Shown: positions 33,985 through 48,724, counted from the first letter of the stretch. The stretch: DNA of 64,000 bases from Dehalococcoidia bacterium (GCA_964291495.2 OZ219871.1:800001-864000); one strand, 5' to 3'. Numbers and translations: made by a program. Notes: generated by a model from the sequence alone, not told the origin.

Positions 33985-35627
33985 GACCGGAGCACGACTG
34001 CCTGCGTCTCCTCGCTCACATGCCCCTCCTCGACCGCCTGGAGCTCGTGGCGGTCTCCGGCTGGTCGAGGGGCGCGGTCTACGGGAGCATCCGGGCGCTC
34101 GAGGAGGGAGGCCTCGTCGCCTCCCTGCCCCACGCCTCCGAGCTCGTCGCGCCGACGCGCCGCTACTGCCTCACCACGGCCGGGCTGCGCCGCCTCGCCA
34201 GCGAGGAGGACGTCGCCGTGCACGAGCTGCTCCGCTCGCGGCCCGTGTCCGCCCACTGGCGGCGCATTCTGCTGGAGCGGCTCGACGCCGTTGCGGCCAG
34301 CTATCGCCTCGCCGCCGCGATCGCCGACCTCCACTACCCGCTCCGCTTCCGCTGGTACCGGGCGATGCCCATGGACGCCTCGATCGCCCTCCCCGACGGG
34401 CGCACCCTCGCCGTCGTCAGGCAGGGCCACACGGCCGAACGCACGGCCTTCGCCAAGCGGCTCTGGCGCCTGCGGGACGGACCGCGGCCCGGCGCCTACC
34501 TCGTGCTCGCGCCCGACGAGATGCGTCTCCGGCACACGGCGCGACTCATGGCCGACGCTCCCGCCCCTGTCTTCCTCGCGCTCGAACGTGACGCCGTCTC
34601 TTCAGAGCCGGGGTCGCGTGTCTGGCGCACGGCGTCCGGGGCGCCGCTCCTTGAGCTCGACGAGGTGCTCCACCACGTCTTGGCCCACGGCGCCTGGCCG
34701 GAGGAGCAGCCGCCGTCGCGGGCCACCCTCCCAGAGGACCTCCGCGAGGTGGATGCAGGTGAGGCTCCCGGCCGGCTGCTCCCCGCCCGGCTCGGCTCGG
34801 CCTCGAAGCGCGCGCTCGACCTGATCGCCGACTGGCCCTGGATCTCGCCCGGCGACCTCGGTGGGCTGCTCGGCGTCTCCGGCGCACGGGTCTCGCAGCT
34901 CGTGCTGCCGCTCGAGGACATCGGTCTCGTGGTGCGTACTGTGGGCCGCCTCGTCCTCGGCGACCGCGGCCTCTCGATGCTCGCGCGGCGCGACCGGGCG
35001 TCGGTCGGCCTAGCGCGAAAGCGCTGGAGCGCCGCGCGGCTGCATCCTGACGCCCCACGCTCCTGGCGCAACCTGACCGGCAGGCGCACCCGGCAGCTCT
35101 TTCGCAACCTGGAACACACGGCGGCTGTCCACGGGTTCGTATCTGCCCTCGCGCGCCAGGCCCGTGACCTGGGCTGGGAGGTCGCGCAACTCGATCCGCC
35201 CCACCGGGCGACCCGGTATTTCCGCCACGACGGCTCTTTGCGCTCCGTTCACCCTGACGCCTTCGGCATGCTGAGACAGGGCGACACGGTCTGGCCGTTC
35301 TTCCTGGAGTGGGAGCGACGCGCCGTCCGGCCCGTCACGATGGCCGCCCGGCTCGCCCCGTACCTGCGCTACTACGCCTCACACCGGCCCAACGACGACC
35401 ATGGCGTCCGCCCCGCCGTGCTCGTGGTCTTCGACGATGAGCTGGCGGCATCCCGCTTTCTTCGCGTGGCGCGGGAGGGCATGGAGCACGCCCGGGTCGA
35501 GGTACCCCTGCTCGTTTCGCATCGCCGCCTGCTCCGGCATGAAGGGCCGCTGCGAGACTCTTGGTCTTGCTCAGCTGGCTCCAAGCCGACACACCCCTTC
35601 AGTCGAGCTCATCTTTCCTTGCTGTGA
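33981..35627 (+). CDS. Replic_Relax-family relaxase with two tandem domains
   Basis: C-terminal H...HPDAFG...FFLEWER...YLRYY; N-terminal half has a degenerate copy; follows the T4CP. Confidence 0.75.
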   Translation: MRPEHDCLRLLAHMPLLDRLELVAVSGWSRGAVYGSIRALEEGGLVASLPHASELVAPTRRYCLTTAGLRRLASEEDVAVHELLRSRPVSAHWRRILLERLDAVAASYRLAAAIADLHYPLRFRWYRAMPMDASIALPDGRTLAVVRQGHTAERTAFAKRLWRLRDGPRPGAYLVLAPDEMRLRHTARLMADAPAPVFLALERDAVSSEPGSRVWRTASGAPLLELDEVLHHVLAHGAWPEEQPPSRATLPEDLREVDAGEAPGRLLPARLGSASKRALDLIADWPWISPGDLGGLLGVSGARVSQLVLPLEDIGLVVRTVGRLVLGDRGLSMLARRDRASVGLARKRWSAARLHPDAPRSWRNLTGRRTRQLFRNLEHTAAVHGFVSALARQARDLGWEVAQLDPPHRATRYFRHDGSLRSVHPDAFGMLRQGDTVWPFFLEWERRAVRPVTMAARLAPYLRYYASHRPNDDHGVRPAVLVVFDDELAASRFLRVAREGMEHARVEVPLLVSHRRLLRHEGPLRDSWSCSAGSKPTHPFSRAHLSLL

Positions 35628-35830
35628 CCGGGCTCCTGTCCGTTGGCCGTCTCCATCTCCTGGTTCCCGCCGTCCACTGGGTCTTGGGTGGCCGGCGTCC
35701 GCGACTTGGATGCCGACCCATCCTGGTAGAGGTCCGGGTTCGCGAGGGCGTGGCGCACGATGATGCGTGCGAGAGTGCGAAGGCCCTCGATGCGGATCCG
35801 CTCCTGCTCGTCTGTCAGCCGTTGCCTCAT
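35609..35830 (-). CDS. Small hypothetical protein
   Basis: AGGAG RBS; ATGA overlap with the ImmA-like gene. Confidence 0.55.
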   Translation of the reverse strand: MRQRLTDEQERIRIEGLRTLARIIVRHALANPDLYQDGSASKSRTPATQDPVDGGNQEMETANGQEPGHSKER

Positions 35831-36312
35831 AGTCCAGCTCCTGAACGAGGGGTTTCAGTTTCGCTCTCTACGGTGACGTCTGCAGGAGGTTGCAGGCGAA
35901 GCGGATCGAGTTGGACCAACTCGTCGGGGACTCCGAAGTGCTCGGCCATCTCCCACGATTGAACAAGGCCTTCCGCCTCCGCTTCCTGCTCGTCGATGAG
36001 CAGTCCGTGAGCGAAGTCCTCCGCCTCCCGTTCATAGCGCCGTGCGAGATCCGTGTGGGCGCGCAGCCAGAGGTGATTGCCGGGATGGAGTAGCTGGTGC
36101 CCGATGGCGTGGGCGATCACCCATCGCCGCCACTCCGGGCTGAGCCGCTCCGCGACCACGACGATGCCGTCGATCTGCAGCTCCTTGAGGACGTCGAGTG
36201 GCCAGGGGATTACCTCAAGCCCCAGGGCGACGGCAACCGCTTCGGCGTCCACGCGGCCGAGCAGACCCAGCTCCCGCCGCAAGGTCGAGGCCCGTTGTCG
36301 CGCCCGGTTCAA
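35827..36312 (-). CDS. ImmA/IrrE-family metallopeptidase-like protein with HAxxH
   Basis: RRWVIAHAIGH...EREAEDFA..LL; TTG start after GGAGG. Confidence 0.8.
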   Translation of the reverse strand: MNRARQRASTLRRELGLLGRVDAEAVAVALGLEVIPWPLDVLKELQIDGIVVVAERLSPEWRRWVIAHAIGHQLLHPGNHLWLRAHTDLARRYEREAEDFAHGLLIDEQEAEAEGLVQSWEMAEHFGVPDELVQLDPLRLQPPADVTVESETETPRSGAGL

Positions 36313-36408
36313 ACCTGACCTCCCTCAGTCCGTTCGATGAGCCGGCCGGGCTGGGAGGGCAATCACGTCCTGGAGACTGGGGCCCAACCTACAACCGACG
36401 CTGATTGG

Positions 36409-39400
36409 CTACTCGCCTGGACCGGAAATCGTGAACTCCAGCCGGTCGGAGAGCTTCCCGCCGGATCCCGTGCAGACCGCGCCCCGCACGCCGCAGTCCG
36501 TCGCGGCGGGCAGCACGATGGTCACATCGCCAGTACCGTCCGGCGTTACGGTTATCTGCCAGTGAATGTTGCGGGTGGCGCTGTGACGATCCATGCGCCG
36601 CACCTCCGTTACCTGCCCACCCGTCACTGTGAGTGCATCGTCCCTCAACGTGAGGTAGCTGAGGCCCGCGATATGCTCGCTGAACCGCAGCTCGAAGGTG
36701 AACGCCGTCTGGCCGTCGTGGCTCTGCGGCGGGTTCTCCAGGCGGGCGGTCAGGTGTTCCGCGGCCGCCACCGTGAAGGAGACTTCGAGTGTTCCGAGTA
36801 CGTTGCCGCCGAGAGCCCGCCCCGAGTAGGCCGTCGCCCGGAGGAAGTAGCTGCCGACCGGCAGGGGCTGGCCGTTCAGCCCGCCCTCGCTGTCCCCGTA
36901 GAGCGAATAGGGAGCGTAGTTCTCCGTCTGCGAGACCGTCTTGGCACCGGAGAGCTCCAGCCGGACGCTCCCTACGCGTACGCGGTAGTCGGTCTCCACC
37001 CGGATGCCAAAGGCGCCGTTGTCGGGGTCGCTCAGCCTCAGCGCGGCCCCGCCAGTGAGGGCTCCCAGCACCTGCTGGTTCGCGGCGTTCACCACCGTGA
37101 AACCGGTCAGAGGGTCAGGCGGCGTCACCGCCGCCGTCATGTCGCTGGTGAGCTTTTCGTCGAAGTTGTTGTTGTCGAGGAAGGAGACCTCCACCCCGAT
37201 CCTGCTGCCCCTGTCGGCGTCCCGCAGGGTGTAGCTGGAAGCGGTCGCTCTGTAGATGCGACGCTCGGTCCCCCCATTGCTGCGGATCCACTGGTACTTG
37301 AGGAGGGCTCCGTCCATGCCGTTGGCGTCGGCGATGCCTGACACGTCAGCCGTCAGCGTCTCGCCGGTCTCGACCGTACCGCTGATCGTGGGCTTGCCCG
37401 TGGCCGGGGTATTCTGGACGGACTCTCCTAGGACCAGGCTCACCTCCACCTCGTCTCCGTGCGTCCACCCCAGGCCGGGATCCGCCCACCGGAACCGGTA
37501 GGGTGACTCGTTGACCCTCTCTGCCGAGGCTTCACCTGAGGCAAACTCTTCGTCGCCCACCCGCAACACGAAGGCGTAGTCGAACATCTTGGACATGCCG
37601 AAGTTCAGTTCGCTGTCCATGAGCAGGACGTAGTAGACCGTGTGGGTCGCTCCGTCCACCTCAAACCTAGTTTCCGACAGGGCGCCCAGTGTCGGTTGGC
37701 CGAACAACGTGTAGCCGCTTGCGCTGCGTCTGGTCTCCACGGTCAGCGTCGCCGTCCATGCCGCCGCTGGGCCCGACTCAGGTGCCGCCGAGACCTCGGC
37801 CGACGGCGAACCCTCGCCCACATCGTTGACGGCAATGACCCGCACCGCGTATTCCACCCCGCCCGTCAGCCCGCTGAGGGTGTGGGCAGGGCCGGTGGCG
37901 GTCTCCTCGGAAACGTCCGGCAGGGTGTCCCAGCTGCCCGAGGCATCCTTCCACTGCACCCTGTAGTGGGTGATGTCGGAGCCACCGTCGCTTACGGGCG
38001 CGTGCCAGGACAGATCCAGGGCCCCCGCATCGTGCGGAGACGCTTTCAGGTGTTGCGGCGCCCCCGGTACGGTGGCTGCAACCGCAGTAGTGGACGCACT
38101 CGTCAGGGATTCCTCGTTGTCGGCACCGTCTCTAAAACTCACCCGCACCTTGATGGTCTTGCCCGCATCGTCGTCGGACAGCACATACGTTGAGTCCGTC
38201 GCGCCACTGATGTCCACGTCGGTGTTCCCGTGGTTGGCAATCCACTGGTAGATAAAGGTGGCGTTGTCCAGCCCGTCGGCGTCGGCGATGCCTGACACGT
38301 CAGCCGTCAGCGTCTCGCCGGTCTCGACCGTACCGCTGATCGTGGGCTTGCCCGTGGCCGGGGCGTTGGGAGCTTCCGCAGCAATAGTCGCAAACCGTGC
38401 GATACGTGCCGAAATCGTCTGGCCGTCCTCCCAATCGACATCGACATCCTCCCAGGTAAAGTTGCTATCTCCTGGGTCTAGTTCCACCACTAAGTCTCCA
38501 ACTTGGAGGGTCAGATCCGCCGTGCCTGGAACGCCCTCAGAAAACGCTAAGCGTAGCTGGCGCTCCGGGGTGTAGTACCACAGCCACTTTGCCTGGAGGA
38601 CAGAACTGCCGCCGATATTCGAGAAGAGATCGGCGCGGACTGCGCCAATGGCACCATTGCCGAGGTCCACCACGGACATATCCGCCGACCACACCGGAAT
38701 TTCTCCCTTAACTGCCGCCGTTGATGCGCTGGATAAGGACTCCTTATTGCCACGGTCGTCAGTGAAGTTGACCCGAACTCTGATGGTCCTGCCTTCGTCG
38801 CCGGGTTCCAAGGGGTAGGTCGATCCCACGGCGTCTTGGATGTCCGTGTCCCCGGTTCCGTCGTTTTGAATCCACTGGTATTCGAAGATGGTGTCGGCGA
38901 GGCCATCGGGATCGGCGATCTCAGACGTGTCCACCGTCAGCGTCTCGCCAACCCTTGGGGTTCCGCTAATGATGGGTTCGCCGCTCGCAGGACCGTTATC
39001 AAAGCGCGAATCTTCGGTGAAGACCCAAGGTCGGGCCTGTTTGATCGAGAGAACATCCTCGCTCGTGATTTTGAACTCAATCTCGATGGCGAACAGATCA
39101 TCGGCTTCGATCCCGTAGAGTTCCGCGAGTTCGTCGTGGATCACTTCGAGGTGGCTGCGCAACTGAACCATTTGGGCATCGCTCATCAGGAGTTGCCCTC
39201 GCGCCACCTGATTGGAGGTCGCAAGAACTTCATACGTACCGGACCCGTGTAACAGAATCTCCTCGGGTATCGAGCGTGCCTCCGGGTTGGTCACCAAGTC
39301 CTCGCCGAGCTGCGTGTTGACGTAGTAGGCCCCATCTGTGCCACGTATAGGGTCGAAGCTGACGGCGACGCCATTGGCCCGCTCGTCGGAGAAGTTGGGA

Positions 39401-41385
39401 TGTACTAGCACTCCCATCGCCGTGATCATGTGGTCGATGCGGTGGAACTCACGCTCGGTGAAGGCCCGGAAGTTCCAGAGGCTGGCGTACACCTGCTTGA
39501 GGGACTTGTCGATGCCTTCTTCCGCGGTCTCATCCGGCTTCTGGGTCTTGGAGTCGTACAGCCCCGCGCCGCTGAATCCGGGAAGGTCCTCGTTGTTCGT
39601 GCTCGACCGGTAGCGCAGCGACTGACCTTCCGGGTAGGTGGCGTGCATCTCCTCCAGTGCTTCGACGATCCACACCGGCGTCTCACCGTTCTTGATCTTC
39701 TTGCGGAGCTTCTTGAGCTCCGACGCCTGGGTGTCGTAGTCAGACTGGAAATTAGGGTCAACCAGCATCTCTTCGATGTCGTCGTAGAACCCGTTGTGCT
39801 TCATGAACTCGTCGTAGAAATAGAACGGCACGGCGAACCCATCCGGGACGGTACCCTCAGGGAAGCCGAGTGTGCGGAGAACGGCCATATTCGCCGCCTT
39901 GACGCCGAAGGCGTCCCAATCGTCGAATGCAACGTCGTTGAGGGCGGTGATCTGTGTGACCGTCAGATCCCGCTCCGGCGTCTGGGGCTCTGATGGACGG
40001 GAACCGGCATAGTGAGCATCGACCTCTTCCGGTGTTGCCGCGCGGATTGTGTAGCCCGACTCGTCCACTGTGTAGTGGACATAGCTGCCGATGAGATCAC
40101 CAATGTCGTGATCGTGGAGGGCGTCGCGGATGAAGGCGTTGGGGGCGCCGTCTTGCACCGCCCGCAGGTTAACGTGCGACAGCGGGGTTTGAGGCACGGT
40201 CGTTATGATGCCCGCGACGCGCGATAGCTCGTTAGGCAAGGTCTCGTAGATCACGATGTCGCGAGGGTTTGGCCTTTCCTCCAGGGTCATTAGCCGTAAT
40301 GCGCCGTACCCTTGGCCCCGATTGAGCAAGACGAAGTCGACATCGGGGAGGATGTCGTCCTCGGCCAGCACAGTGACTCGGGAATCCTTGTAGAGCGCCT
40401 CTTCTTCTTTATACAGCTGCAGCGCTCGTCCTGGCAGTGGGTAATAGGAAAGGTTGTTCTCGATCAGCGGCATGCTAGCCGCTAAGAGCTCGTACGAGTG
40501 GCTAACATCCGCGAAGTGGACGGCGCTCACGGGCTCGAATTCGAATCGGTATACGCCAAGCGAACCATCAGGGGCAACGATATTGGGATGAAATACGATC
40601 ACTCCCCTCAACGTCCCTTGAAACCGATGCCAGCGAGGGTCGCTCCAAAGGTCGGTGGCTGACTCGAACTGGAAATGTGCTCGGTGTGTCTCAGTGTTTT
40701 GGAAATAGATACCAGGATGGTTGGTGTCCATCCCGAACAGCACGAACTTCACGAACTCTAGACCGACTAGATGCGTGTCAATTGACACGGCTGCGCCCTT
40801 GTAAGAGAGCCCTTCAAACGTCTCTCGGTCAGGTATGGCTAGAGCGCCATTGGCAAATGAGATGACTGGGGCCGGGTTCAGCGGGTTTCTCCCTACCCTA
40901 TCCTGGAGTTCGGTGATGTCGTCGATGCAGTCGCCGTCGAGGTCCGCTGGCTCGGCGACCAGATGCCTCTCTATCCGGTAATGCTCCTTGGGCAGTGCTT
41001 CGAGTTCCTCCGTCAGCGTGGTCGTTCCCGCTTGGCCCAGCGTCACCGAAACCGCAATTTCCCGAGGGGAATCCAGATCAGGTCGTACAAAGAGCGCGAA
41101 GTACTGCTCGGTGGTGGACTCGACGACGATAGGAACGTCCTCAACCTCGACCTCCGTTGGCGTCGGCGCTGGGTTCGTTCCAGGGCACGCATCCTCCTCT
41201 GCGGGTTGCTGGGCGGAAGCAGTGGACCTAGGTAGGAGCAATTCTGGGTGGGAGACGGCCGCTACAGTGGCAGCGAGCACGACCAGACCGAACAATTGGA
41301 GCGCCTGCCGCCGGATCGACTTCCTCGGGTTCCGAGTCCCAAAGCGTCGATAAATGGAGTTATCCACGCTATAACTTCCCGGCAC
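36409..41385 (-). CDS. Large secreted protein: phosphohistidine swivel + PEP/pyruvate-dikinase ATP-grasp + Ig-like repeats + FN3
   Basis: Signal-like N-terminus (ASA-Q); IITTVPQTPLSHVNLRA; FGVKAAN, VPDGFAVP, RSSTNNEDLPGFSGAGLYDS, IEFK, QARP; three G.P.ISG...YQW repeats; FN3 (PGAP...W...Y.VRV.AVN). Confidence 0.85.
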   Translation of the reverse strand: MPGSYSVDNSIYRRFGTRNPRKSIRRQALQLFGLVVLAATVAAVSHPELLLPRSTASAQQPAEEDACPGTNPAPTPTEVEVEDVPIVVESTTEQYFALFVRPDLDSPREIAVSVTLGQAGTTTLTEELEALPKEHYRIERHLVAEPADLDGDCIDDITELQDRVGRNPLNPAPVISFANGALAIPDRETFEGLSYKGAAVSIDTHLVGLEFVKFVLFGMDTNHPGIYFQNTETHRAHFQFESATDLWSDPRWHRFQGTLRGVIVFHPNIVAPDGSLGVYRFEFEPVSAVHFADVSHSYELLAASMPLIENNLSYYPLPGRALQLYKEEEALYKDSRVTVLAEDDILPDVDFVLLNRGQGYGALRLMTLEERPNPRDIVIYETLPNELSRVAGIITTVPQTPLSHVNLRAVQDGAPNAFIRDALHDHDIGDLIGSYVHYTVDESGYTIRAATPEEVDAHYAGSRPSEPQTPERDLTVTQITALNDVAFDDWDAFGVKAANMAVLRTLGFPEGTVPDGFAVPFYFYDEFMKHNGFYDDIEEMLVDPNFQSDYDTQASELKKLRKKIKNGETPVWIVEALEEMHATYPEGQSLRYRSSTNNEDLPGFSGAGLYDSKTQKPDETAEEGIDKSLKQVYASLWNFRAFTEREFHRIDHMITAMGVLVHPNFSDERANGVAVSFDPIRGTDGAYYVNTQLGEDLVTNPEARSIPEEILLHGSGTYEVLATSNQVARGQLLMSDAQMVQLRSHLEVIHDELAELYGIEADDLFAIEIEFKITSEDVLSIKQARPWVFTEDSRFDNGPASGEPIISGTPRVGETLTVDTSEIADPDGLADTIFEYQWIQNDGTGDTDIQDAVGSTYPLEPGDEGRTIRVRVNFTDDRGNKESLSSASTAAVKGEIPVWSADMSVVDLGNGAIGAVRADLFSNIGGSSVLQAKWLWYYTPERQLRLAFSEGVPGTADLTLQVGDLVVELDPGDSNFTWEDVDVDWEDGQTISARIARFATIAAEAPNAPATGKPTISGTVETGETLTADVSGIADADGLDNATFIYQWIANHGNTDVDISGATDSTYVLSDDDAGKTIKVRVSFRDGADNEESLTSASTTAVAATVPGAPQHLKASPHDAGALDLSWHAPVSDGGSDITHYRVQWKDASGSWDTLPDVSEETATGPAHTLSGLTGGVEYAVRVIAVNDVGEGSPSAEVSAAPESGPAAAWTATLTVETRRSASGYTLFGQPTLGALSETRFEVDGATHTVYYVLLMDSELNFGMSKMFDYAFVLRVGDEEFASGEASAERVNESPYRFRWADPGLGWTHGDEVEVSLVLGESVQNTPATGKPTISGTVETGETLTADVSGIADANGMDGALLKYQWIRSNGGTERRIYRATASSYTLRDADRGSRIGVEVSFLDNNNFDEKLTSDMTAAVTPPDPLTGFTVVNAANQQVLGALTGGAALRLSDPDNGAFGIRVETDYRVRVGSVRLELSGAKTVSQTENYAPYSLYGDSEGGLNGQPLPVGSYFLRATAYSGRALGGNVLGTLEVSFTVAAAEHLTARLENPPQSHDGQTAFTFELRFSEHIAGLSYLTLRDDALTVTGGQVTEVRRMDRHSATRNIHWQITVTPDGTGDVTIVLPAATDCGVRGAVCTGSGGKLSDRLEFTISGPGE
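37324..38363. repeat. 86-bp identical direct repeat (37324-37409 and 38278-38363) within the Ig-like units
   Basis: Nucleotide-identical segments encoding PATGKPTISGTVETGETLTADVSGIADA. Confidence 0.85.
41343..41370. other. dif/Xer-like recombination site A (AGCGTCGATAA-ATGGAG-TTATCCACGCT)
   Basis: 11-6-11 dyad with arms 10/11 complementary and a TAA-N6-TTA core. Confidence 0.8.
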
Positions 41386-41582
41386 TGACGAATAGAAAGC
41401 GGCACCCGCCGGGAGGGACTACGATTGTCGAAGGCCACACTCACGGGGCTTCGTGCCCGCACGACCATCGCCAGCTTCCAAGCGCCGACCACGACTCACA
41501 CCGGGCTTGCCCGCTCGTCCTGGGCCTCGCACCTGGCCTGGATGCCGCCTGGGAGGCTCCCGCTGCTCGGGAAGAAGCGGCC

Positions 41583-42689
41583 GTGCCCGGTCCGGGTCGA
41601 GGAGCTGTGGCAGGCACGCCGGTGAGCGGGGGGTACGGAGAGGTTGGGCACGAGACGGGAGCCGCCGGCGGGGTGGCCACGGCCAACGCGCTCCTGGCCT
41701 CTCCGCCGCCACCCGACGTCGCCCCAACGGGCCATTCGCGGCCGGGTGCTGCGGCCCTGACCACGTCTGACGTTGACAACCTCAACGCGGTTCTTGACCA
41801 CGAAGTCGCCCGAAGCACCCTCAGGAACTACCGGGTCCAGTGGAAGAACTTCATCGCTTGGACGCTCAGGAAGGGCGTCTCGGCGCTCCCTGCCGACTCG
41901 GCGCAAGTCGCGGCGTACCTGGCCGAGCGGATCGAGGAGCAGGGACACAAACCGGCAACACTGCGGGTGGCTGCCTCCGCGATTGCCTTCGTGCATAAGA
42001 CGGCCGGCATGGGCGATCCCTGCGCTGGGCAGGAGGTGAAGAGGACACTCAAGGGCGCAACGCGGAAGGCGGGGCGATCGCAGAAGCAGGCGGAGGGGCT
42101 GACGGCCGACGCCCTGGCCGCGATCCAATCGACGGCTCGCAATCCAAGGACGGGCAGAGGAGGGAGGCTCGAGAGTCAAGGCACCGCCGAGAGCAGGGGG
42201 AACCTGGACATTGCGCTCATCAGCCTCATGCGCGACGCCATGCTGAGGGTGTCGGAAGCGGCCGCGTTGACATGGAACGACATTCGGACTGCGCGCGACG
42301 GGACGGGCCGCCTCCTGATCCGCCAGTCCAAGACGGACCCAGAGGGGGAGGGCGCGGTCGCGTTCGTATCGGCGCCCACAATGGCGATGCTTCGATTGAT
42401 ACGCCGAGGCGCGACCGACACCGACCGTGTATTCGGCCTTCGGCCCAACCAGATATCGAGGCGGATCAAGCAGGCGGCGCAGGTGGCGGGGCTCGGCAAT
42501 GGCTTCAGCGGCCACTCACCGCGGGTGGGCATGGCGCAGGATCTGGCGAGAGCGGGGATCGAACTACCGAGCTTGATGACTGCGGGGCGCTGGCGCACTC
42601 CCGCCATGCCGGCGCATTACACGCGCAATGAGTCTGCCGGCAGAGGGGCCGTGGCGCAGTTCTACGACACACACGCCCATCTGGCCTGA
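41583..42689 (+). CDS. Tyrosine recombinase (Cre-like; start may be GTG 41622)
   Basis: SAM-like N-terminal domain; catalytic R (LRVSE), K (SKTD), HxxR (HSPR), W (GRW), Y (HYTR). Confidence 0.92.
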   Translation: MPGPGRGAVAGTPVSGGYGEVGHETGAAGGVATANALLASPPPPDVAPTGHSRPGAAALTTSDVDNLNAVLDHEVARSTLRNYRVQWKNFIAWTLRKGVSALPADSAQVAAYLAERIEEQGHKPATLRVAASAIAFVHKTAGMGDPCAGQEVKRTLKGATRKAGRSQKQAEGLTADALAAIQSTARNPRTGRGGRLESQGTAESRGNLDIALISLMRDAMLRVSEAAALTWNDIRTARDGTGRLLIRQSKTDPEGEGAVAFVSAPTMAMLRLIRRGATDTDRVFGLRPNQISRRIKQAAQVAGLGNGFSGHSPRVGMAQDLARAGIELPSLMTAGRWRTPAMPAHYTRNESAGRGAVAQFYDTHAHLA

Positions 42690-42805
42690 CGGGGTGCACA
42701 CGCACTGCTGACCCCCGTTCGGTGAGCGGCGAGCGCAGGCCAATCCCGGACCGGACAACGAACTAGCGGTGGCGCGGAGGTCCATCAGATGGATCGATCA
42801 GATGG

Positions 42806-42886
42806 TTGCCCGCGCTGGTGGCTCCATGCTAGGTTGCTGTCATTGACGCCCTTACCGGTGGAGCATAGGAGGGGGCCAAAGCGATG
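42806..42886 (+). promoter_or_regulatory. Outward-facing promoter + RBS + ATG at the edge of the invertible segment
   Basis: TTGCCC (42806)-N18-TAGGTT (42830) with extended TG; AGGAGG at 42867; ATG at 42884 currently reads MYNSIYTL*. Confidence 0.6.
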
Positions 42887-42908
42887 TATAACTCCATTTA
42901 TACGCTCT
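42881..42908. other. dif/Xer-like recombination site B (GCGATGTATAA-CTCCAT-TTATACGCTCT)
   Basis: GTATAA/TTATAC dyad; the spacer is the reverse complement of the site A spacer. Confidence 0.75.
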
Positions 42909-43176
42909 GACATTTACGGAATAAATGCGAAGAAGAGTTTCTCGAAGTGACTGAATTGGCCTCACCACCGCGCTCCTTCCGAAGCTGGTCGTAGACCTCC
43001 TTTAGGACTCCCTTCTATCTTACTACGTGACATATAAAGCAGGGGTAACCGAGTCACAAAACGGCGGTAAACAAGACGGTGCCTTGCGTGGAACACGAGG
43101 CTCCGAGGAGCCGACGGCAAGTTCCCGCTGGTTGCCTCGCCGAACCCTGAGGGGCGAACCTACTGCCCGGCGCTTC

Positions 43177-43545
43177 TCACGCTCCGCTCCGCCTTCTCTT
43201 CCGGCGTTGCGCACGCACGAACCTGATGAAGTCGTGGATCGACTCGATGTCCTCTGGCGGGAGGCCGGCCACAGCGTCGCGGAATGACACCTCCGCCGCT
43301 TTGAGCAACTCCGACTCGACCACGGATTGCCCAAGGAGTTGGTCCGCGCTCGTCTCGCAGTGGAAGGCCACCTCGACGAGGTGCTCGTGCTGGGGCTTCA
43401 TGCGGCCTGCCTCCCAGGCCCATACGGTGTGCGAGGCCACGCCGACGAGCTCGGCGAGTTGTCGCTGAGTCAGCCCCACCTGCTTGCGTGCCTCGCGGAT
43501 ACGCCCTCCCAGGGCCTTCCAGCGGTAGCCACGGTCCCGGGTCAT
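43177..43545 (-). CDS. XRE-family (ImmR/CI-like) repressor
   Basis: RIREARKQVGLTQRQLAELVGV....V.AWEAG...P. Confidence 0.88.
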   Translation of the reverse strand: MTRDRGYRWKALGGRIREARKQVGLTQRQLAELVGVASHTVWAWEAGRMKPQHEHLVEVAFHCETSADQLLGQSVVESELLKAAEVSFRDAVAGLPPEDIESIHDFIRFVRAQRRKRRRSGA

Positions 43546-43611
43546 GCGTGGGGGCTCCTGCATCCTTCGCCTCGCCAGAAGACGCTCTCCAAGATGATAG
43601 AACACGCGTTC

Positions 43612-43650
43612 TTGACAGGCACTGTGTCCTTACATACAGTAGCACACTGT
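43612..43650 (+). promoter_or_regulatory. Sigma70 promoter with overlapping operator-like dyads
   Basis: TTGACA (43612)-N17-TACAGT (43635); ACTGT/ACAGT inverted repeats at 43621-43640 and 43636-43650. Confidence 0.75.
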
Positions 43651-43685
43651 CCAGACGCAGATCATCGAGGAGCCTACGCACCGCC

Positions 43686-43928
43686 ATGCGCCGCCGCCGA
43701 GCAGTGGTGACACTCAAGCCCGAACCGCTCTGGGAGCGATTGGCCGTCCTCGGCCGCTCCCAGAACTGGCTTGCGCGTGAGGCGGGCATCAGCCCCGGCT
43801 ACCTCTCCATGCTGGTCAACGGCAAGCGCGCACCATCGGGCCGCCTCCGTAGGCGGCTGCTGCATATCCTCGAGGTGGAGGACTTCCATGAGTTGTTCGC
43901 CCTCCGGACGCCGGCCGACGACTCGTAG
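43686..43928 (+). CDS. Cro-like XRE HTH protein
   Basis: SQNWLAREAGISPGYLSMLVNGKRAPS; GAGGAG RBS; divergent from the repressor. Confidence 0.85.
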   Translation: MRRRRAVVTLKPEPLWERLAVLGRSQNWLAREAGISPGYLSMLVNGKRAPSGRLRRRLLHILEVEDFHELFALRTPADDS

Positions 43929-43962
43929 GGCCGCTCCCCGGCTGCCCCGCTACAGCGGCCCC

Positions 43963-44238
43963 GTGATCGCCGGGCGTCGCGTGCCCTACGGCAGGGGCGA
44001 GTTGCCGGAGGACTTCCCGGACCGGCTTGAGCGCTTGAAGCGGGCCAGCGGCCTGAGCTGGGACGCGTTCGCGGAAGCCGCGGGTGTCGAACGCAAGCAG
44101 GTCCTCCGCTGGCGCCGGGGAACCGAGCCGAGCGGCAGCGCCTACCACGCTCTTGTCGAGCTGGCCCGCTGGATCCCTGGTGGCATCGAGATCCTCTTGG
44201 GCGAGGACTTCCTCGCACCCCGGACCGGAGCCAAGTGA
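43963..44238 (+). CDS. XRE HTH protein (start uncertain)
   Basis: DFPDRLERLKRASGLSWDAFAEAAGV....RWRRG..PS. Confidence 0.7.
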   Translation: MIAGRRVPYGRGELPEDFPDRLERLKRASGLSWDAFAEAAGVERKQVLRWRRGTEPSGSAYHALVELARWIPGGIEILLGEDFLAPRTGAK

Positions 44239-44501
44239 TGCCGCGTCGCCGACCGCGTCCCCGGCGGGCCTCCTACGTGTACCCCAACGACTTCGGGCAG
44301 AGCCTGGAGCGAATCAAACAGGCGTCGGGCCTCACCTGGGCGGAGCTCGCCCGTCAGCTCGGGACCACCACGCTCAACCTCTGGCGCTGGCGCAAGGGCG
44401 TGCATCCCAGTAGCCGCCACTTGCTCGCCCTCCAGGACCTCGCACGCCGCCTGGACCTCGCACACCTGCTGCCGAGAGCGAGGATCCGCAGGCGATTGTG
44501 A
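44235..44501 (+). CDS. XRE HTH protein, paralog of the upstream gene
   Basis: DFGQSLERIKQASGLTWAELARQLG....RWRKG..PS. Confidence 0.75.
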   Translation: MMPRRRPRPRRASYVYPNDFGQSLERIKQASGLTWAELARQLGTTTLNLWRWRKGVHPSSRHLLALQDLARRLDLAHLLPRARIRRRL

Positions 44502-44595
44502 ACATGAGCAGCACCATGCCCTCAGGCTGGGTCGCGCGAGGAGCACTTGCCGTCGGTCTTGGGGAACCGAAAGACAGGCGACGCGCCACCCCCGT

Positions 44596-46191
44596 TCATT
44601 CTGCAGGGGTGGTGAACGCGCGTTTCAATACCGCGTCCAGGTCTCTCCGGAACCCACCCTCGCGCCCAGCGACCGCTCCTAGAGCGGCAACGTCGTCCCC
44701 GAAAGGTTGACTTGGCCCCGGATAGAGGATGGCTGCGTACTCAACCACTCGCTGATCATCCTCTCCGCGTATTGCGTCGCGGTAGGCATGCATCTTGTCG
44801 ATGTCGGACTTCTTGGGACGTCCGGTCAAGCCCTCTTCGTCGTCATCGCGGTCTTCGCTGTCGAGCTTGTACTTGGGGTCGAACACGAACAGCCGTGGGG
44901 CCGAGTCGAACGCTCGAACTTCGAGAACGATATCGGGGCGCTGGGGGAAGCTCACCGAGCGCGGCCATCTGGTCCGACCGAATGTCCGCTCATGTGTGAG
45001 GGTTGCCTCCGTGCCTGACTCGTCATGCCGGTACCGCACGAGCGGCCTGCCCCCGGGAAGCACTTCAATGAAGAGTGCCGCTTGCCGCCGGCGGGACAGG
45101 CGCTCCTCAACAACTCGGAAGCCTCGTTCACCAGCCGCCTGGGTCACCGCGTCGACCAGCTCGAGCAAGCACCACCGCTGGTAGAGGTATGGGAGATTCT
45201 CCAAAGGGGCGTCGAGCGCATCGTCTTCAAGATGCACAGCGACGCTGCGTCGGAATTCGACCAGTCCGTCGAGAACGGCGCGATACTCGGGTCGATTGAG
45301 GAGCACCATCGTTAGGACGATGGGGAGGTCGCGAGGTGTATCAACCTCTGCCAGGAATGTGGCGGCACGCTCAGCGCTCCGGAGCTCGTTGCCCAGCGCC
45401 TCGAGCTCGGCGAGCACTGCCTCACGCTCGACGACCTCGGCGAGAAGTCGCCGGATCCTCGTTGCAACCTCTCGGGCGAAGGTCTTCAGGAGCCGGTTCT
45501 CGTACACATCGGCCGTGTGTCTGACTCGCTGATCGATGAGCTTGCGCAGCTCACCCTCTTCATTGACGTTGCCGGCTGCGGCAACGGCCAATGCAAGGCG
45601 TGCTGGTTGGGGGCGGCGGACGCGGTCCGCTCGCATCCATACGTCGTCGTTGCGGAAGATGCGATACGGATCTCGCGAGATGCTTCGGAGCGCTTGTGCT
45701 AGCCCCGGTCGTCCGGACGTCCCGCGTACAGCCCGCCGCAAGCGCAGGAGCTCCTGCGCAAGCGTGGACTCGCGACGCGGAAGCAATCGCAGTCCTTGCA
45801 GTGCCCCTAGGCGCTGGAGCCCGACCGCGATCGACGTTGGCAAACCTGACTCCAGAGCGTCTATCGTGCCCGCAAGAGCTTCTCTGTTCAGCTTCCCTGA
45901 CCGAATGGTGAAGGCGATCGAAGCCGAACCGGATGGCGACTCAAGCTCGATGAGGTAGTTGCCTGGCCCCGAGCGCGGCCACTCGACAGACACCCCGCCC
46001 TTCCAGGAGGGGGTCGCCTTCGCACTGCCGAACGCCTCTCCCTGCAGTTTGAGTTGCGCGCCCTGTGCTTCCCACTCCTCTGGGGTGACGCCTACCTCGA
46101 GCGTCGACGGCTCCCACTCACGGGGAGTGTCTATCGGCTGGCCCGACGCATCGACAAACCTCAGCTCAGGCGAAGTAGCTGACTGAACCAT
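44596..46191 (-). CDS. McrC-like DUF2357/PD-(D/E)XK nuclease
   Basis: DVYENRLLK; YQRWC; RPDIV...FDPKYK; KMHAYRDAI. Confidence 0.85.
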   Translation of the reverse strand: MVQSATSPELRFVDASGQPIDTPREWEPSTLEVGVTPEEWEAQGAQLKLQGEAFGSAKATPSWKGGVSVEWPRSGPGNYLIELESPSGSASIAFTIRSGKLNREALAGTIDALESGLPTSIAVGLQRLGALQGLRLLPRRESTLAQELLRLRRAVRGTSGRPGLAQALRSISRDPYRIFRNDDVWMRADRVRRPQPARLALAVAAAGNVNEEGELRKLIDQRVRHTADVYENRLLKTFAREVATRIRRLLAEVVEREAVLAELEALGNELRSAERAATFLAEVDTPRDLPIVLTMVLLNRPEYRAVLDGLVEFRRSVAVHLEDDALDAPLENLPYLYQRWCLLELVDAVTQAAGERGFRVVEERLSRRRQAALFIEVLPGGRPLVRYRHDESGTEATLTHERTFGRTRWPRSVSFPQRPDIVLEVRAFDSAPRLFVFDPKYKLDSEDRDDDEEGLTGRPKKSDIDKMHAYRDAIRGEDDQRVVEYAAILYPGPSQPFGDDVAALGAVAGREGGFRRDLDAVLKRAFTTPAE

Positions 46192-48427
46192 GCTCGTTGA
46201 AACGAATGCGCATGCGGCGTGCCTTTTCCGCACTCAGCGGGAAGCGCTCCCCGCATAGTTCGATGAAGCCCGCCAAGGATTGCTCGATACGTGGGTCGAT
46301 GCCGTGTACCTTCGGCAGCAGCTTCTGAAGCATCTGTTCGTCGAGAGCTGCCTCAACTTCCACCCCGATCGCCTCGGCTTCTTCTACGTAGTTTGTAATG
46401 TCGTCGATCACCCTGAACGCGAACGGCGCGACCTCATGCAGCGTGTCCCACGCAGACAGCAAGGCTTCGGCAAGCGGCGAGTCGCCAAGGTGCCCCTGAA
46501 TCGCCTCTCGCGGCGCTTCAAGTTCAACCAGCTGTGCCCGGTCGTAGACTTTGTCGGCGAACCCATGTGTGGTCTCGTCCACGTTGACGGTGCCGACGAA
46601 CCGGAGGTTCGGCGTGAGCCACACTTGCTCCTCTCCCAACTGGAGGGCCACCTTCGTCTCGCGTTGCCGGACTTCGAGCGCGGAGAGGAAGGTCGCGAAG
46701 TAATACTCAACGCGCGCAAGATTCATCTCGTCGAGCACGAGGTAGTAGGGAACCGCCTTCCGGCCCGCCGCATTCGCTGACTCCCACTCGTTGCCCGCTC
46801 TCCGTAGGAAGTCGCTGAACTCTGTGTCGTAGTAGGCCTCCCGAAGCGGGTTGAAATAGCCGAGCAGGTCCTCGTTCGTCGTCCAGTTGGGGGCCACCGC
46901 AACAAGGCACTGTTCGCCGGCGACAGCGCGCGCGTATGCCTGTGCGAGCCAAGTCTTCCCGGTCCCGGAAATGCCAGAGAGGATTACGAAGCCACGAGAC
47001 CGCAGCGACAAGTGCAAGCGTCGAAGCGTTCGGTCACTGATGACGAGACCCTCAGCGTCGATGCGCGACCGAATCGTTTCAAGGTCCGGCTCAACATAGT
47101 CAGCTGCCGCTTCACTCTGAACCTCTGGGTCGATCGAAACGCCCTCAGCGAGCTGCCGGAAACTGTCAGAAACCTTGGAGGCGAAGCCTTCAGAGAGCGG
47201 GTACAGATACCCCTGGTTGACGGAGCCGCGCCGATTGAATGGCCCGCGCTCCTCCTGACGCCACTCGATCGGTATGTCTCGCAGCGACACGGGGTCACTG
47301 AGTGCTTCCACGTGTACCTGGGCAAGCCTGCCATCGGGTTGCCACCCCTCCTTGGCCAACGCCGCGGGGATCTGCGAAAGCTCAGCGGCCTCTGCAACAC
47401 TCGAGACCGCTCGGATGTGCCCCGCCCAGTAATGGAAGACCCTATCGCCGACCGTAAGGTCGGCCATGTTCCGATGATGAGCTAGCTCCCTATCGCCCGA
47501 CTTGACCGGGGCCCACAAGTAACCCCCCTCGATCTCTTGTTCGTGCGTACCTCCTTGGTTCACCCACCAGTGGCGCCTCACGTGATCCGTCGACGGCTTG
47601 TCCTCGACGGCCTCTCGCTTCACTCGCTCCACCGTATGGACAAACTTCGACACATCACCCTGGACCTGCCCGCCGTCGAGGTCCGTGACCAAGGCGAATC
47701 TCCTGTTCTCTCCACCATCGTCGGCGACAATCTCGGAACCTTCGTAGCCGTCCCAGAAGGCACCGGGGCCGATTCCTGCTCGTCCTCCTCCAATCCGGCC
47801 TCGGTGAAGGAGTAGCGTATGTCCGGACTCAACCTCGCGTGCGAAGCATCCACCGATCCGCCGGTTCACCCCCGCAAGTGGTGAGTTCACCTCGCAGGTA
47901 ATCGAGGTCATGCCGCCGGGGCTTGGCTCCGAGGTCCCAAGCGCGTTCCAAAACCGGTTTCCCTCCGGCGCGACGCGGGACGCTAGCCAGACACTCTCGG
48001 CCGCAAGCCAGTAGGCAGTCTCCTCGACGGAGCCGCCCTGGAAGCCGAAGCGAACACCGTCGATCGGGACGGTTCCCCGCCGGAAGGCTCGGGCGAATGC
48101 TTCCTGAGCCTCTTGTATCTCGTCCACTGCCGAAAGCACGACCGCCGTAGGCGAGTCGAGCTGCGCAAGATTTGCCCTGGCGGCAGCGACGTCTTCGAAG
48201 TTCCAGAACTCGTAACCATTCGTGTTCGGAGAGGCGCGGCCTGGGTTGGCGCGGGTAATGACTGCCATAGCCGCGCCACTTGGCGAGGTGTAGGCACCAA
48301 CGCCATCAACCTCGTATTGACTGCCACCGCCAGGTCCGCGGACGATCCGACACCGATATTCGCTGCCCATGTACCCGGCGACCAGGACTACTCCGGGCGC
48401 TAGGAGTGAGCGTTCTTCTTGCTTCAT
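46166..48427 (-). CDS. McrB-like AAA+ NTPase with RAMA-like and EVE-like N-terminal domains
   Basis: GISGTGKT, LDEMNLARVEYYF, GTVNVDETT; N-terminal SPSGAA..V...NGYEFW; WWVNQG...GYLWAP. Confidence 0.88.
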   Translation of the reverse strand: MKQEERSLLAPGVVLVAGYMGSEYRCRIVRGPGGGSQYEVDGVGAYTSPSGAAMAVITRANPGRASPNTNGYEFWNFEDVAAARANLAQLDSPTAVVLSAVDEIQEAQEAFARAFRRGTVPIDGVRFGFQGGSVEETAYWLAAESVWLASRVAPEGNRFWNALGTSEPSPGGMTSITCEVNSPLAGVNRRIGGCFAREVESGHTLLLHRGRIGGGRAGIGPGAFWDGYEGSEIVADDGGENRRFALVTDLDGGQVQGDVSKFVHTVERVKREAVEDKPSTDHVRRHWWVNQGGTHEQEIEGGYLWAPVKSGDRELAHHRNMADLTVGDRVFHYWAGHIRAVSSVAEAAELSQIPAALAKEGWQPDGRLAQVHVEALSDPVSLRDIPIEWRQEERGPFNRRGSVNQGYLYPLSEGFASKVSDSFRQLAEGVSIDPEVQSEAAADYVEPDLETIRSRIDAEGLVISDRTLRRLHLSLRSRGFVILSGISGTGKTWLAQAYARAVAGEQCLVAVAPNWTTNEDLLGYFNPLREAYYDTEFSDFLRRAGNEWESANAAGRKAVPYYLVLDEMNLARVEYYFATFLSALEVRQRETKVALQLGEEQVWLTPNLRFVGTVNVDETTHGFADKVYDRAQLVELEAPREAIQGHLGDSPLAEALLSAWDTLHEVAPFAFRVIDDITNYVEEAEAIGVEVEAALDEQMLQKLLPKVHGIDPRIEQSLAGFIELCGERFPLSAEKARRMRIRFNEHGSVSYFA

Positions 48428-48724
48428 GGCAATGTCCGGTCAGCGGCATACAGAGGCCGCGGCAGTCAGCAGCGTACCGGTTGGGACTGCGGAAACGCGA
48501 GCGTCTGACGGAGCCAGCGCCGCATGCACGAGTACCAGAGTGCTCCGACCCTGCCGTTGCTGTGCTCAAGCCTCGCGGCGTGGGGAGGGCACTTCAGCTA
48601 TGAAGTCCCTCGCGGGGGATTCCTCTCGCGTGCCCGCTGCGCGACGCTCGCCATTCACGTTCGGAAGGCGACACGACGGATGTGTTCACTGTCGGACTCA
48701 TCAAACGGGGGCGAGAGCAGCGAC

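Follow-up and report, generated by a model that had tools for sequence, protein, structure and literature searches.

Within the window, the whole 64,000-nt stretch of DNA analysed, an uninterrupted frame of 1658 codons (Table 1) encodes, in order, a recombination site (site A), a signal-peptide-like stretch, and then PPDK_N, fn3, and Ig-like domains. Homologues of this protein have their own ATG a few codons ahead of the hydrophobic stretch, whereas the window gene lacks one; there is no start codon between site A and the hydrophobic stretch. The only in-frame starts upstream of the signal peptide, GTG 41385 and GTG 41367, both lie inside the segment bounded by site A and a second site, B, and the gene call for this protein in the collection (P0009) begins at residue 114, skipping both GTGs. 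A first-pass annotation had placed site A within the first codons of a 1658-aa ORF, and the frame does cross the site. As argued below from the sequences of this locus and its relatives, the 1.5-kb segment from about 41341 to 42910 is probably a self-contained invertible on/off cassette for the giant gene.

Table 1. Coordinates of the cassette, its sites, and neighbouring features in the window
Feature	Position	Strand	Description
ImmA/IrrE-type peptidase gene	35827-36312	-	Downstream of the giant gene; Pfam Peptidase_M78, E 5.9e-10
Giant secreted-protein frame	36409-41385	-	1658 codons from GTG 41385, 1652 from GTG 41367
Site A	41341-41372		Outer arm 41341-41353, spacer 41354-41359 (ATGGAG), inner arm 41360-41372
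Terminator-like hairpin and T-rich run	41398-41410	-	Just upstream of the GTG starts; weak (1 found, 1.0 expected from shuffles)
Cre-like tyrosine recombinase gene	41583-42689	+	Pfam Phage_integrase; nearest structures Cre/Tre; catalytic residues invariant
Promoter-like element	42806-42835	+	Outward-facing; TTGCCC, 18 nt, TAGGTT; TG at 42827-42828 (extended -10)
Shine-Dalgarno-like AGGAGG	42867-42872	+	11 nt before ATG 42884
Site B	42879-42910		Inverted relative to A; inner arm 42879-42891, spacer 42892-42897 (CTCCAT), outer arm 42898-42910
8-codon frame	42884-42910	+	From the inner-arm ATG of site B
XRE repressor gene	43177-43605		Convergent; right flank of the cassette

Sites A and B each consist of two inverted arms around an asymmetric spacer, and together they form inverted repeats around a short segment that carries a recombinase gene. 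The repeat arms (41350-41366 and 42885-42901) are 17 nt long and 94% complementary (16/17), with an exact 14-mer within, the inverted core that the first-pass annotation had reported. Allowing up to 2 mismatches, this core has exactly 2 matches in the window, for which shuffles predict 0.01 and none of 100 reaches 2. A search of the complete genome (3,079,595 bases, 3.08 Mb) with up to 1 mismatch again finds 2, and a reversed control finds 0. The site pair greatly exceeds chance expectation and has no further copy in the genome; the search for additional sites that the annotation had proposed returns the two known ones only. The annotation had also called the sites dif-like, with an 11-6-11 layout. 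The pair is real, and so is its resemblance (ATAA, 6 nt, TTAT) to dif, but the arms are better described as 13-6-13 by the consensus of the homologous-cassette family considered below. One relative (L022) contains a perfect 13-6-13 palindrome; of its 26 arm positions, the window sites share 22 and 18. Scored without gaps against the family consensus over the same number of arm positions, site A likewise reaches 22/26 and site B 18/26, making B the weaker site. The inner arm of B has an apparent 1-nt insertion and contains an ATG (42884-42886). The arm ends next to the spacer (GTATA and TATAC) also occur in loxP.

The gene between the sites, first annotated as a Cre-like tyrosine recombinase, retains that assignment and, judged from its sequence, is intact. 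Its product matches Pfam Phage_integrase (PF00589, E 2.2e-14, above the curated cut-off), and the nearest solved structures are 17 Cre/Tre sequences (E 7e-12 to 1.5e-10), while XerD reaches only 2.1e-4. The alignment with Cre/Tre spans both domains; residue identity with Cre is low, most of it being detected within the C-terminal 55 residues. R222, K250, H311, R314, W337, and Y346 are invariant across 13 aligned homologues, and all six positions fall in stretches aligned to Tre/Cre. These residues correspond to the catalytic set of Cre (R, K, H-x-x-R, W, and the nucleophilic Y). GTG 41583 is the first start codon of the frame, although the start actually used is uncertain; the conserved core sets in near 41745. 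A serine invertase switch of the Hin/Gin type was rejected, since a search of the cassette recombinase for a Pfam Resolvase match gave none and returned tyrosine-recombinase families only. A Xer/dif or Xer-exploiting element was also rejected, because the cassette has its own recombinase and the arms vary with the recombinase lineage, the arm types that track lineage being GTGTATAA, GGATAA, and CCGTATAA. In more distant relatives (45-55% identity), one palindromic site stands shortly before the recombinase gene, which is the layout of P1 cre/loxP.

As read from the sequence, launch signals, namely a promoter-like motif, a Shine-Dalgarno sequence, and a start codon in the site arm, face outward only at the cassette end that follows the recombinase gene, in the homologous cassettes as well. 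Here the AGGAGG, the ATG, and the short frame within site B noted in the first-pass annotation are indeed present; in the assembled orientation, the frame from ATG 42884 stops at 42908-42910, just outside the site. The promoter-like sequence noted ahead of site B fares less simply. A strict σ70 scan of 41200-43300 finds no promoter and does not list the 42806-42835 element, but the motif is conserved in homologues, and how well such rules hold in this lineage is uncertain. Among four same-genus loci its TTGC and TAG..T columns are invariant and the surrounding spacer is poorly conserved, and it is conservation across homologous cassettes that makes the element a putative promoter. An outward TTGnnn, 16-19 nt, TAnnnT motif is found within the recombinase-distal 130 nt in 10/14 cassettes, against 0/14 for the opposite end; control regions give 0/11 (DNA between site A and the target) and 1/13 (upstream of the recombinase). 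Likewise, of 15 cassettes scored for an extended -10, 10 have it at the recombinase-distal end and none (0/15) at the other. A purine-rich, GGAG-type motif occupies the equivalent place in most homologous cassettes and is missing at the other inner end. In one cassette (L140), the two inner ends are identical until one reads GGAGAC and the other CTAGAC. The outward expression signal inside the segment is a candidate defined at the level of sequence.

Around the cassette is a low-GC integrative island whose other genes include a McrBC-like system, XRE/ImmA regulators, and a large serine recombinase (48813-50729, 6 kb from the cassette). Relatives share the right flank, XRE genes included, at 82-84% conservation. 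In three same-genus relatives, an ImmA homologue is directly beside site A, at a distance of about 165 nt; in the window, the interval from the site A outer arm to ImmA is precisely where the 5-kb giant gene is found.

Four independent searches yielded 22 homologous cassettes, with recombinases 61-75% identical to that of the window where identity was measured (part of the 22 loci). The annotation had suggested looking for inverted sites around recombinase homologues, and every one of the 22 has such a pair with the same 6-bp spacer at both sites, while 13 different spacers occur across cassettes. Strand exchange by a tyrosine recombinase requires matching spacers. Spacers that are identical within but diverse between cassettes indicate that the site pair is kept matched. 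At each of the 21 classifiable loci, a large gene has its 5' end toward the cassette; the neighbours encode giant adhesin-like proteins or are defence genes; two cassettes adjoin an Eco57I-type methylase and a DUF499 protein. L140 is a second locus whose giant frame crosses the site. In L052 and L136, which are in the flipped state, a frame initiated in the cassette crosses the site, and its stop overlaps the target start (GTGA in L052, ATGA in L136). Direct fusion or a stop/start overlap with the cassette start codon is seen in four cassettes: that of the window, L140, L052, and L136. Most cassettes have neither, and 100-600 nt lie between the stop of the site frame and the target start. Cassettes and flanks are reshuffled among relatives, and in one of these (L024) the B site is mostly lost.

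Homologous loci carry the cassette in both orientations, and the breakpoints coincide with the repeats. In two pairs of related loci, the difference is an inversion of the cassette at the sites; in a third pair, it is a more complex rearrangement there. Between L051 and L052, a 93.5%-identical flank changes strand exactly at the core, and the left flank of L052 recurs, reversed, as the right flank in L050, L055, and L061. Between L136 and L137, which belong to one genus, both flanks are swapped and reversed around a collinear cassette; L138 and L142 have right flanks that are 97.9% identical, against which their cassettes point in opposite directions. For the genome of the window, the only run that contains it (X1, available as contigs) provides a 2907-nt contig, at depth 14, that bridges both sites in the assembled orientation. 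No inversion joint is listed among the contigs of this run, which as contigs drop rare variants, and the run is possibly the source of the assembly itself. The same state as that of the window is seen in 18 of 21 classifiable cassettes and in all four same-genus assemblies, a distribution that fits a switch that is mostly off and would equally fit a working state.

These features suggest the following mechanism. The Cre-type recombinase encoded by the cassette would recombine the two inverted lox-like sites that bound it, and the recombinase-distal end would act as a launch pad, supplying the promoter-like element, the Shine-Dalgarno sequence, and a start codon located within a recombinase-binding arm. 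In the assembled orientation, this launch pad would face non-coding DNA and yield only the 8-codon frame. The giant gene would then have its two GTGs, with neither a Shine-Dalgarno sequence nor a recognisable promoter; thus, its expression is probably weak or off. Inversion would bring the launch pad up against the site A outer arm, with the ATG then reading in frame through the site into the giant signal peptide, and would turn the gene on. When the exchange at the core is carried out in silico, the ATG is in frame with the giant frame, a stop codon lies just upstream of the ATG, and the protein has the 1652 residues previously predicted, the same length as that from GTG 41367. We infer that the recombinase acts on the sites, that the cassette inverts in this organism, how often it does so, and which of the two states is the on state. 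That the assembled state is off is suggested by the asymmetry of the sequence, and some expression in this state is possible, since the frame is open and has two GTGs. The earlier proposal of a phase-variation module with a translated site is upheld for the matched sites, the signals at the distal end, the two orientations among homologues, and the in-frame geometry, and is a prediction as regards inversion in this genome and the off polarity.

Other explanations must be weighed against this one. The cassette may invert with a different polarity or logic: the assembled state could be the one that expresses, from GTG 41367 or 41385, or both states could express at different levels, with the outward promoter acting mainly on the other flank, for example antisense to the XRE gene. 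Both inner arms do give an in-frame start (GTG at A, ATG at B), the assembled state predominates in the family and among the four same-genus genomes, and the XRE flank is conserved. However, the inner end at A has no Shine-Dalgarno sequence, and the promoter motif and extended -10 are absent from that end in every cassette scored (0/14 and 0/15); furthermore, relatives have an in-frame stop codon directly before the inner arm of site A, the gene call skips both GTGs, and it is the flipped-state cassettes that have frames coupled to the target start. This alternative is unlikely, although less so than the others. It is improbable that the cassette is a fossil, locked in this genome next to a giant gene that is silent or decaying. 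The degenerate arms of site B, with the apparent insertion and the lower consensus score, would fit such decay, as would the single orientation in the X1 contigs and the loss of most of the B site in L024. Yet the spacer and 16 of 17 surrounding positions are intact at both sites, as are the recombinase frame, its catalytic residues, and the 1658-codon frame.

About as improbable, or slightly more so, is a selfish or housekeeping island element of the Cre/lox type, serving multimer resolution or mobility, with an incidental neighbour and no regulatory role for inversion. The single upstream site of distant relatives, the surrounding island with its serine recombinase, XRE/ImmA, and McrBC-like genes, and the reshuffling of cassettes and flanks are in keeping with such an element. 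However, inverted sites can neither excise nor resolve, the constant orientation of the large gene toward the cassette (21/21) speaks against an incidental neighbour, and for such a neighbour the asymmetry in promoter, Shine-Dalgarno, and start codon would be unexpected, as would the start/stop overlaps. The annotation had further raised the idea that site A is an integron-like capture/expression site, with the giant gene inserted as a cassette. The position of this gene between the outer arm and ImmA, which in relatives is close to site A, is what such an insertion would produce. Nevertheless, the idea has very little probability: a third site is absent from the far end of the giant gene and from the rest of the window and genome, and no cassette array is present; in place of an attI site and an attC array in direct orientation there are two inverted sites only, and the recombinase is Cre-like.

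The preferred reading, an invertible on/off cassette, shares features with several known systems. Like Cre/loxP of phage P1, the cassette has Cre as its nearest structural relative, the catalytic residues, palindromic arms, and an asymmetric spacer. Unlike Cre/loxP, it has two inverted sites that bracket the recombinase gene, an arm that encodes a start codon, and a variable spacer of 6 bp (8 bp with the fixed A and T included). As in Salmonella Hin/hix, the recombinase gene and an outward promoter lie within the invertible segment, and a surface-protein gene is switched. Hin, a serine invertase, depends on an enhancer and on Fis; the promoter that it switches brings no start codon with it, and the hix sites are not known to be translated as part of the target. 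The E. coli fimS switch (FimB/FimE) and the cwpV and flagellar switches of C. difficile (RecV) resemble the cassette in that a tyrosine recombinase inverts a short promoter segment governing surface structures. In these systems, the recombinase genes are outside the segment, and the repeats are outside the coding frame of the target. Expression of cwpV has been described as phase variable (PMC2784873).

Inversion at short repeats also moves an expression region before alternative surface-protein genes at Ureaplasma UU172/mba and Mycoplasma vsa/vpma. In Ureaplasma, the UU172N/irb region, including a 5' coding part, is described as lying before UU172C or, when inverted, before UU171 (PMC3047005). 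The tyrosine recombinases Xer1, Mbr, and HvsR are reported near the Ureaplasma and Mycoplasma loci, and the recombination sites of vpma are placed in the 5' untranslated region (PMC2268961). Those are multi-gene loci with the recombinase beside the moving segment, whereas here there is one gene, to which about 10 codons (the site) would be supplied. Finally, gene-altering programmed inversions and the type I R-M invertons (PsrA/CreX) have inverted repeats in coding sequence and a tyrosine invertase nearby. Eco57I-type and BREX genes are reported to be enriched as neighbours of programmed inversions, which are described as swapping downstream gene parts and retaining one upstream part (PMC9881135). 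In the cassette, by contrast, it is the upstream part (promoter, ribosome site, and start) that would move.

The chances are about even that the window cassette belongs to a horizontally spread family of plug-in switches derived from a Cre/lox-type system. If so, any promoterless, startless gene that abuts the outer arm would become switchable, either by direct fusion, as in the window and L140, or through a leader frame that crosses the site and overlaps the target start with its stop codon, as in L052 and L136. Such a family would control giant adhesin-like proteins together with restriction/defence genes in at least two phyla, and its 13 natural spacer variants would constitute ready-made, mutually incompatible lox-like sites.

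The first-pass annotation read the cassette (41341-42910), a tyrosine recombinase gene between inverted sites A and B, as a switch that controls the adjoining giant gene by inversion, and this remains the reading that the sequence best supports. The inverted repeat claimed around the recombinase gene is real: its 17-nt arms (41350-41366 and 42885-42901) are complementary at 16 of 17 positions and include an exact 14-mer. At up to two mismatches, the 14-mer occurs in the 64-kb window only as the two cassette copies (shuffle expectation 0.01; 0 of 100 shuffles reach two), and a window scan for consensus arms scoring at least 17/26 finds no third site. At up to one mismatch, the same two copies are the only ones in the whole 3.08-Mb, 8-contig genome, and the suggested search for further copies elsewhere was thus negative. 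Alignment with homologous loci reveals that each site consists of two inverted arms of ~13 bp with a 6-bp spacer between them; in one relative (L022), the arms form a perfect palindrome. Within the inner (cassette-side) arm of site B, an apparent one-base insertion creates an ATG. Because the spacer is asymmetric, the sites are directional and mutually inverted. The arm ends next to the spacer are the same as those of loxP and dif, and both "lox-like" and "dif-like" are fair descriptions. Of the earlier label, "dif-like 11-6-11", the dif-likeness therefore stands, but the arms are longer than proposed.

Features of the cassette and its surroundings (window coordinates)
Feature	Position	Strand or direction	Remarks
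Replic_Relax (replication-relaxation) protein	33981-35627		
ImmA/IrrE-type peptidase	35827-36312		
Giant frame	36409-41385	-	1658 codons; PPDK_N, fn3, Ig-like repeats; runs into site A
Site A	41341-41372		22/26 arm positions match the L022-type consensus
Tyrosine recombinase gene	41583-42689	+	Pfam Phage_integrase, E 2.2e-14; sole gene between the repeats
Promoter-like element, TTGCCC, 18 nt, TAGGTT	42806-42835	outward	TG before the -10
AGGAGG	42867-42872		precedes site B
Site B	42879-42910		18/26 arm positions match the L022-type consensus
ATG	42884-42886		opens a frame that stops after 8 codons in the assembled orientation
Three XRE-type genes	43177-44238		
McrBC-like pair, PD-(D/E)XK/DUF2357 and AAA_5 proteins	44596-48427		
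Large serine recombinase	48813-50729		

The nearest solved relatives of the recombinase are Cre and the Cre derivative Tre, while XerD is a much weaker match. Thus, as annotated, the enzyme is Cre-like; it is a true Cre relative, unlike invertases of the Fim, Xer, or Hin type. No promoter of its own was identified, the motif being present upstream of the gene in just one of 13 loci. In all four same-genus loci (the window and L015-L017) the recombinase frame is open upstream through site A (485, 453, 451, and 670 codons; 41234-41583 in the window), and in L015-L017 a GTG in the outer (flank-side) arm lies in this frame. This could be an accident of high GC, or the site may be crossed by a second frame.

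Relatives were searched in the same genus and class, in one genome per species (31 loci), in metagenome contigs (68 loci), and in 401 genomes of the class, ten of which, including the window's own, have a match at E <=1e-70. The check for inverted sites flanking recombinase homologues yielded 22 site-bounded cassettes (the window, L015-L017, L019-L023, L025, L027, L050, L052-L054, and L136-L142), establishing both the anatomy of the cassette and its conservation. Their recombinases are 61-75% identical to that of the window in the genus/class, per-species, and metagenome loci (L136-L142 carry no percentages). In the per-species search, members are labelled Tepidiformaceae, Dehalococcoidia, Caldilineaceae, and Nitrospirales. 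L019 and L020 are copies within one genome (95% identical); L140 and L141, in two genomes, are 92.5% alike over the cassette and right-hand neighbours. Spacers are identical at both sites in 22 of 22 cassettes, yet 13 different spacers occur across cassettes (ATGGAG in the window, GTGCAG in three same-genus relatives). Since strand exchange by tyrosine recombinases needs matched spacers, this match indicates joint use of both sites within a cassette. Arm sequences vary along with the recombinase lineage, which suggests that the cassette-encoded enzyme, and not the host Xer proteins, acts on them.

Inverted repeats also flank the gene in two distant relatives, labelled Paracoccaceae and Alphaproteobacteria, at 33-34% identity. 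At 38-55% identity (L026, L028-L030, L056-L077, L109-L111) no flanking inverted pair was found; several homologues at 45-55% have a single palindromic 11-6-11 site just upstream of the gene, as cre and loxP are arranged in P1. Plausibly, the cassette arose when a Cre/lox-type system acquired a second, inverted site downstream of the gene. Two loci in this range contain a second, unrelated perfect 11-6-11 palindrome 3.6 kb downstream of the recombinase gene (L059 6504, L028 7584). Viral contigs gave only two distant relatives (28-35% identity), with convincing flanking repeats at neither. One genome (G343) has four recombinase homologues, three of them in site-flanked cassettes (L138, L139, L140) with spacers ATGCAG (twice) and ATGTAG (once); around the fourth (L140 9195-10715), which precedes another giant gene on its own strand, no flanking repeats were detected. 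L024 (5100-5200), closely related to L025 and L027, retains site A but lacks both spacer and outer arm at site B; this would be a naturally locked cassette.

Comparisons among relatives, made between genomes or contigs rather than inside one population, reveal natural inversions. Between L051 and L052, a 3.6-kb flank of 93.5% identity passes from one strand to the other precisely at the 13-bp core, and the recombinase segments remain collinear (83.6%); on its opposite side, L052 has the right flank of L050, L055, and L061 in reverse. Between L136 and L137, from one genus, the cassette is collinear and both flanks are swapped and reversed. L138 and L142 have right flanks that are 97.9% identical, against which their cassettes lie in opposite orientations, with the strand change at the site. 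The history of L142 is more complex, since it has an inverted second copy of ~410 nt of this flank (G136; 6510-6925 and 8381-8790, one on each side of the cassette); it resembles the outcome of an exchange, site A of one copy with site B of another, more than that of a plain inversion. Judging by these alignments, inversion has taken place at such sites in relatives; its activity in this organism and its frequency we infer. For the window itself, sequencing run X1 (kept as contigs) has one 2907-nt contig, at depth 14, that bridges both sites in the assembled orientation, and no flipped form or joint is listed there, while runs X2 and X3 contain next to none of the window. This contig shows only that the assembled form dominates in X1.

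The two ends of the cassette are not equivalent. Across the window and L015-L017, the promoter-like element keeps its TTGC and TAG..T columns unchanged, although the spacer around them is poorly conserved. In 10 of 14 cassettes, the inner 130 nt next to the site that follows the recombinase gene (the B end) contain an outward TTGnnn, 16-19 nt, TAnnnT motif, which begins 50-83 nt ahead of the repeat and has near-consensus hexamers in two low-GC members. By the same rule, the motif is found in 0/14 at the opposite inner end and in 0/11 of the stretches (111-952 nt) from site A to the neighbouring gene. At the B end, 10/15 cassettes have an extended -10 (TG, one base, TAnnnT), versus 0/15 at the opposite end. 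Most members also have, at the B end, a GGAG-type purine run followed by an ATG or GTG in the inner arm. Such a run is absent at the opposite inner end, where in L015-L017, L050, L051, and L052 an in-frame stop codon directly precedes the arm. In L140, the inner ends are identical for 37 nt and then diverge, with GGAGAC at one and CTAGAC at the other. Of the launch signals annotated at site B, the AGGAGG and the arm ATG are present and the promoter-like element is conserved within the genus, but a strict scan of 41200-43300 found no promoter. A terminator scan of this interval gave one terminator-like site versus 1.0 expected, and Rfam, at gathering thresholds, had no match in 35000-45000. In L015-L017 the B-end ATG opens a conserved 16-codon frame (L015 9777-9830, L016 9715-9770, L017 10237-10290); the DNA immediately outside site B is conserved in these loci, and part of it (GTGACTGAA) is common to the window too.

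The giant gene appears to depend on the cassette for its start codon. Directly after site A, its frame encodes a signal-peptide-like stretch (judged by eye). The only in-frame starts ahead of this stretch are GTG 41385 and GTG 41367, both within the cassette; no ATG, GTG, or TTG is present from the site to the hydrophobic stretch. A scripted exchange of flanks at the core confirmed the prediction that inversion places the site-B ATG in frame with the giant frame, where it is the first start past a stop codon. The existing collection gene call (P0009, 1545 aa) begins at residue 114 and lacks the signal peptide. At least 1393 proteins match the giant protein over its first 400 residues (E <=1e-5, 7999 candidates scored). 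Among the 120 matches listed, many start with a Met of their own, a few residues ahead of the hydrophobic stretch and of a conserved 'STASAQQ' motif, which is present in the window protein too. None of these 120 has site-encoded residues at its N-terminus, so that the flipped form of the giant gene was not found elsewhere. Common to the family are an N-terminal module of ~400 residues and PPDK_N; the domains that come after these (Ig, fn3, LRR, cadherin, and others) form arrays that differ greatly between members. One match is labelled Candidatus Poriferisodalis. PPDK_N is of the ATP-grasp type and here lies in a secreted protein.

In the proposed mechanism, the Cre-like enzyme would invert the 1.5-kb cassette. 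Once flipped, the giant gene would be driven by the outward promoter, Shine-Dalgarno sequence, and arm-borne ATG; in the assembled state, these signals point into ~270 nt that is non-coding and towards an XRE gene in convergent orientation, 3' end first. The assembled orientation is thus read as OFF and the flipped as ON, a polarity that we infer.

The cassettes adjoin very different large genes, whose 5' end faces the cassette in all 21 classifiable loci. The recombinase is directed away from the large gene in 18, as in the window, and two loci (L052, L136) are in the flipped state; L142 is complex. In L141 (G365) the large gene is absent: L140 has a 2042-codon giant gene beside site A, and nothing in L141 corresponds to ~5.5 kb of it. 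A Pfam run on nine of the neighbours identified proteins with LRR and fn3, cadherin-like domains (three), LRR and RTX repeats, Ig/AIR9-type repeats, and an inverse-autotransporter beta domain (intimin-like), all surface/adhesin-like, together with an Eco57I-type methylase and a DUF499 protein, which are defence genes. Surface/adhesin and defence genes are the two classic phase-variable classes. In both flipped loci, a frame begun within the cassette crosses the site and its stop overlaps the start codon of the neighbour (26 codons ending GTGA in L052; ~190 codons ending ATGA in L136). L051, the unflipped partner of L052, has the same crossing frame without a start codon. Stop/start overlaps at the target are present in L025, L050, L051, L052, and L136; the crossing frame of L025 has no start codon within either inner arm. 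In the window and L140 the large frame itself passes through the site. The idea that a site-crossing frame always ends at the target start was rejected, given gaps of 106-617 nt in L021, L022, L027, L137, and L138. In L019, L023, L053, and L054, the pattern used for this test did not match the spacer.

The cassette lies in a lower-GC stretch (~35.6-48.8 kb of the window) adjacent to dnaN, and the interval from 33981 to 50729, with the replication-relaxation, ImmA/IrrE-type, XRE-type, McrBC-like, and serine recombinase genes of the table, is an integrative island. In same-genus relatives an ImmA homologue is directly next to site A, with giant genes after it, whereas in the window the giant gene lies between site A and ImmA. 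In L015 (G010), two copies of an ImmA-like segment (637-1236 and 7792-8191) enclose genes of 303 and 1642 codons, as if this giant-gene block had been inserted with duplication. The first-pass annotation had also raised the possibility that the site serves for integron-like capture or expression. No third site is present at the far end of the giant gene, and nothing therefore supports capture of this kind; inversion remains the favoured reading. Engineered lox66/lox71 pairs trap a cassette in one state, and a comparable design, with a "good" site A and a "double-mutant" site B, was considered and dropped, as arm quality varies from cassette to cassette without a consistent pattern.

Switching by DNA inversion is a textbook mechanism, and each single element of the cassette has precedent. 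Promoter switches worked by tyrosine recombinases are exemplified by fim and RecV, and the invertible segment of Hin, like the cassette, holds both recombinase and promoter. Inversion sites within 5' coding regions are described for Ureaplasma UU172 (PMC3047005), and PMC9881135 describes programmed inversions that adjoin restriction genes, a precedent for the cassettes beside such genes. A full-text search of article text found no description of the cassette family. The screen for Cre-type enzymes in PMC10250229, which gave ~500 recombinase/site pairs, demanded an 8-bp spacer and half-sites of 11-15 bp (figure legend) or 13-15 bp (text), and may have missed sites of this shape. What appears new, in that it was not found described, is the combination of a Cre-type enzyme, a start-codon-encoding lox-like arm, portability of all parts, and many targets.

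Recombinase, both sites, promoter, ribosome site, and start codon fit in 1.5 kb, and the first ten codons of the target are a translated lox-like site. Natural recombinase/site pairs with many spacer variants are useful genome-engineering parts. The same cassette occurs, by labels, in uncultured Chloroflexota and Nitrospirota, lineages in which phase variation has hardly been studied; its presence there beside such varied large genes suggests that heterogeneity of the cell surface and of defence may be common in these little-studied bacteria.
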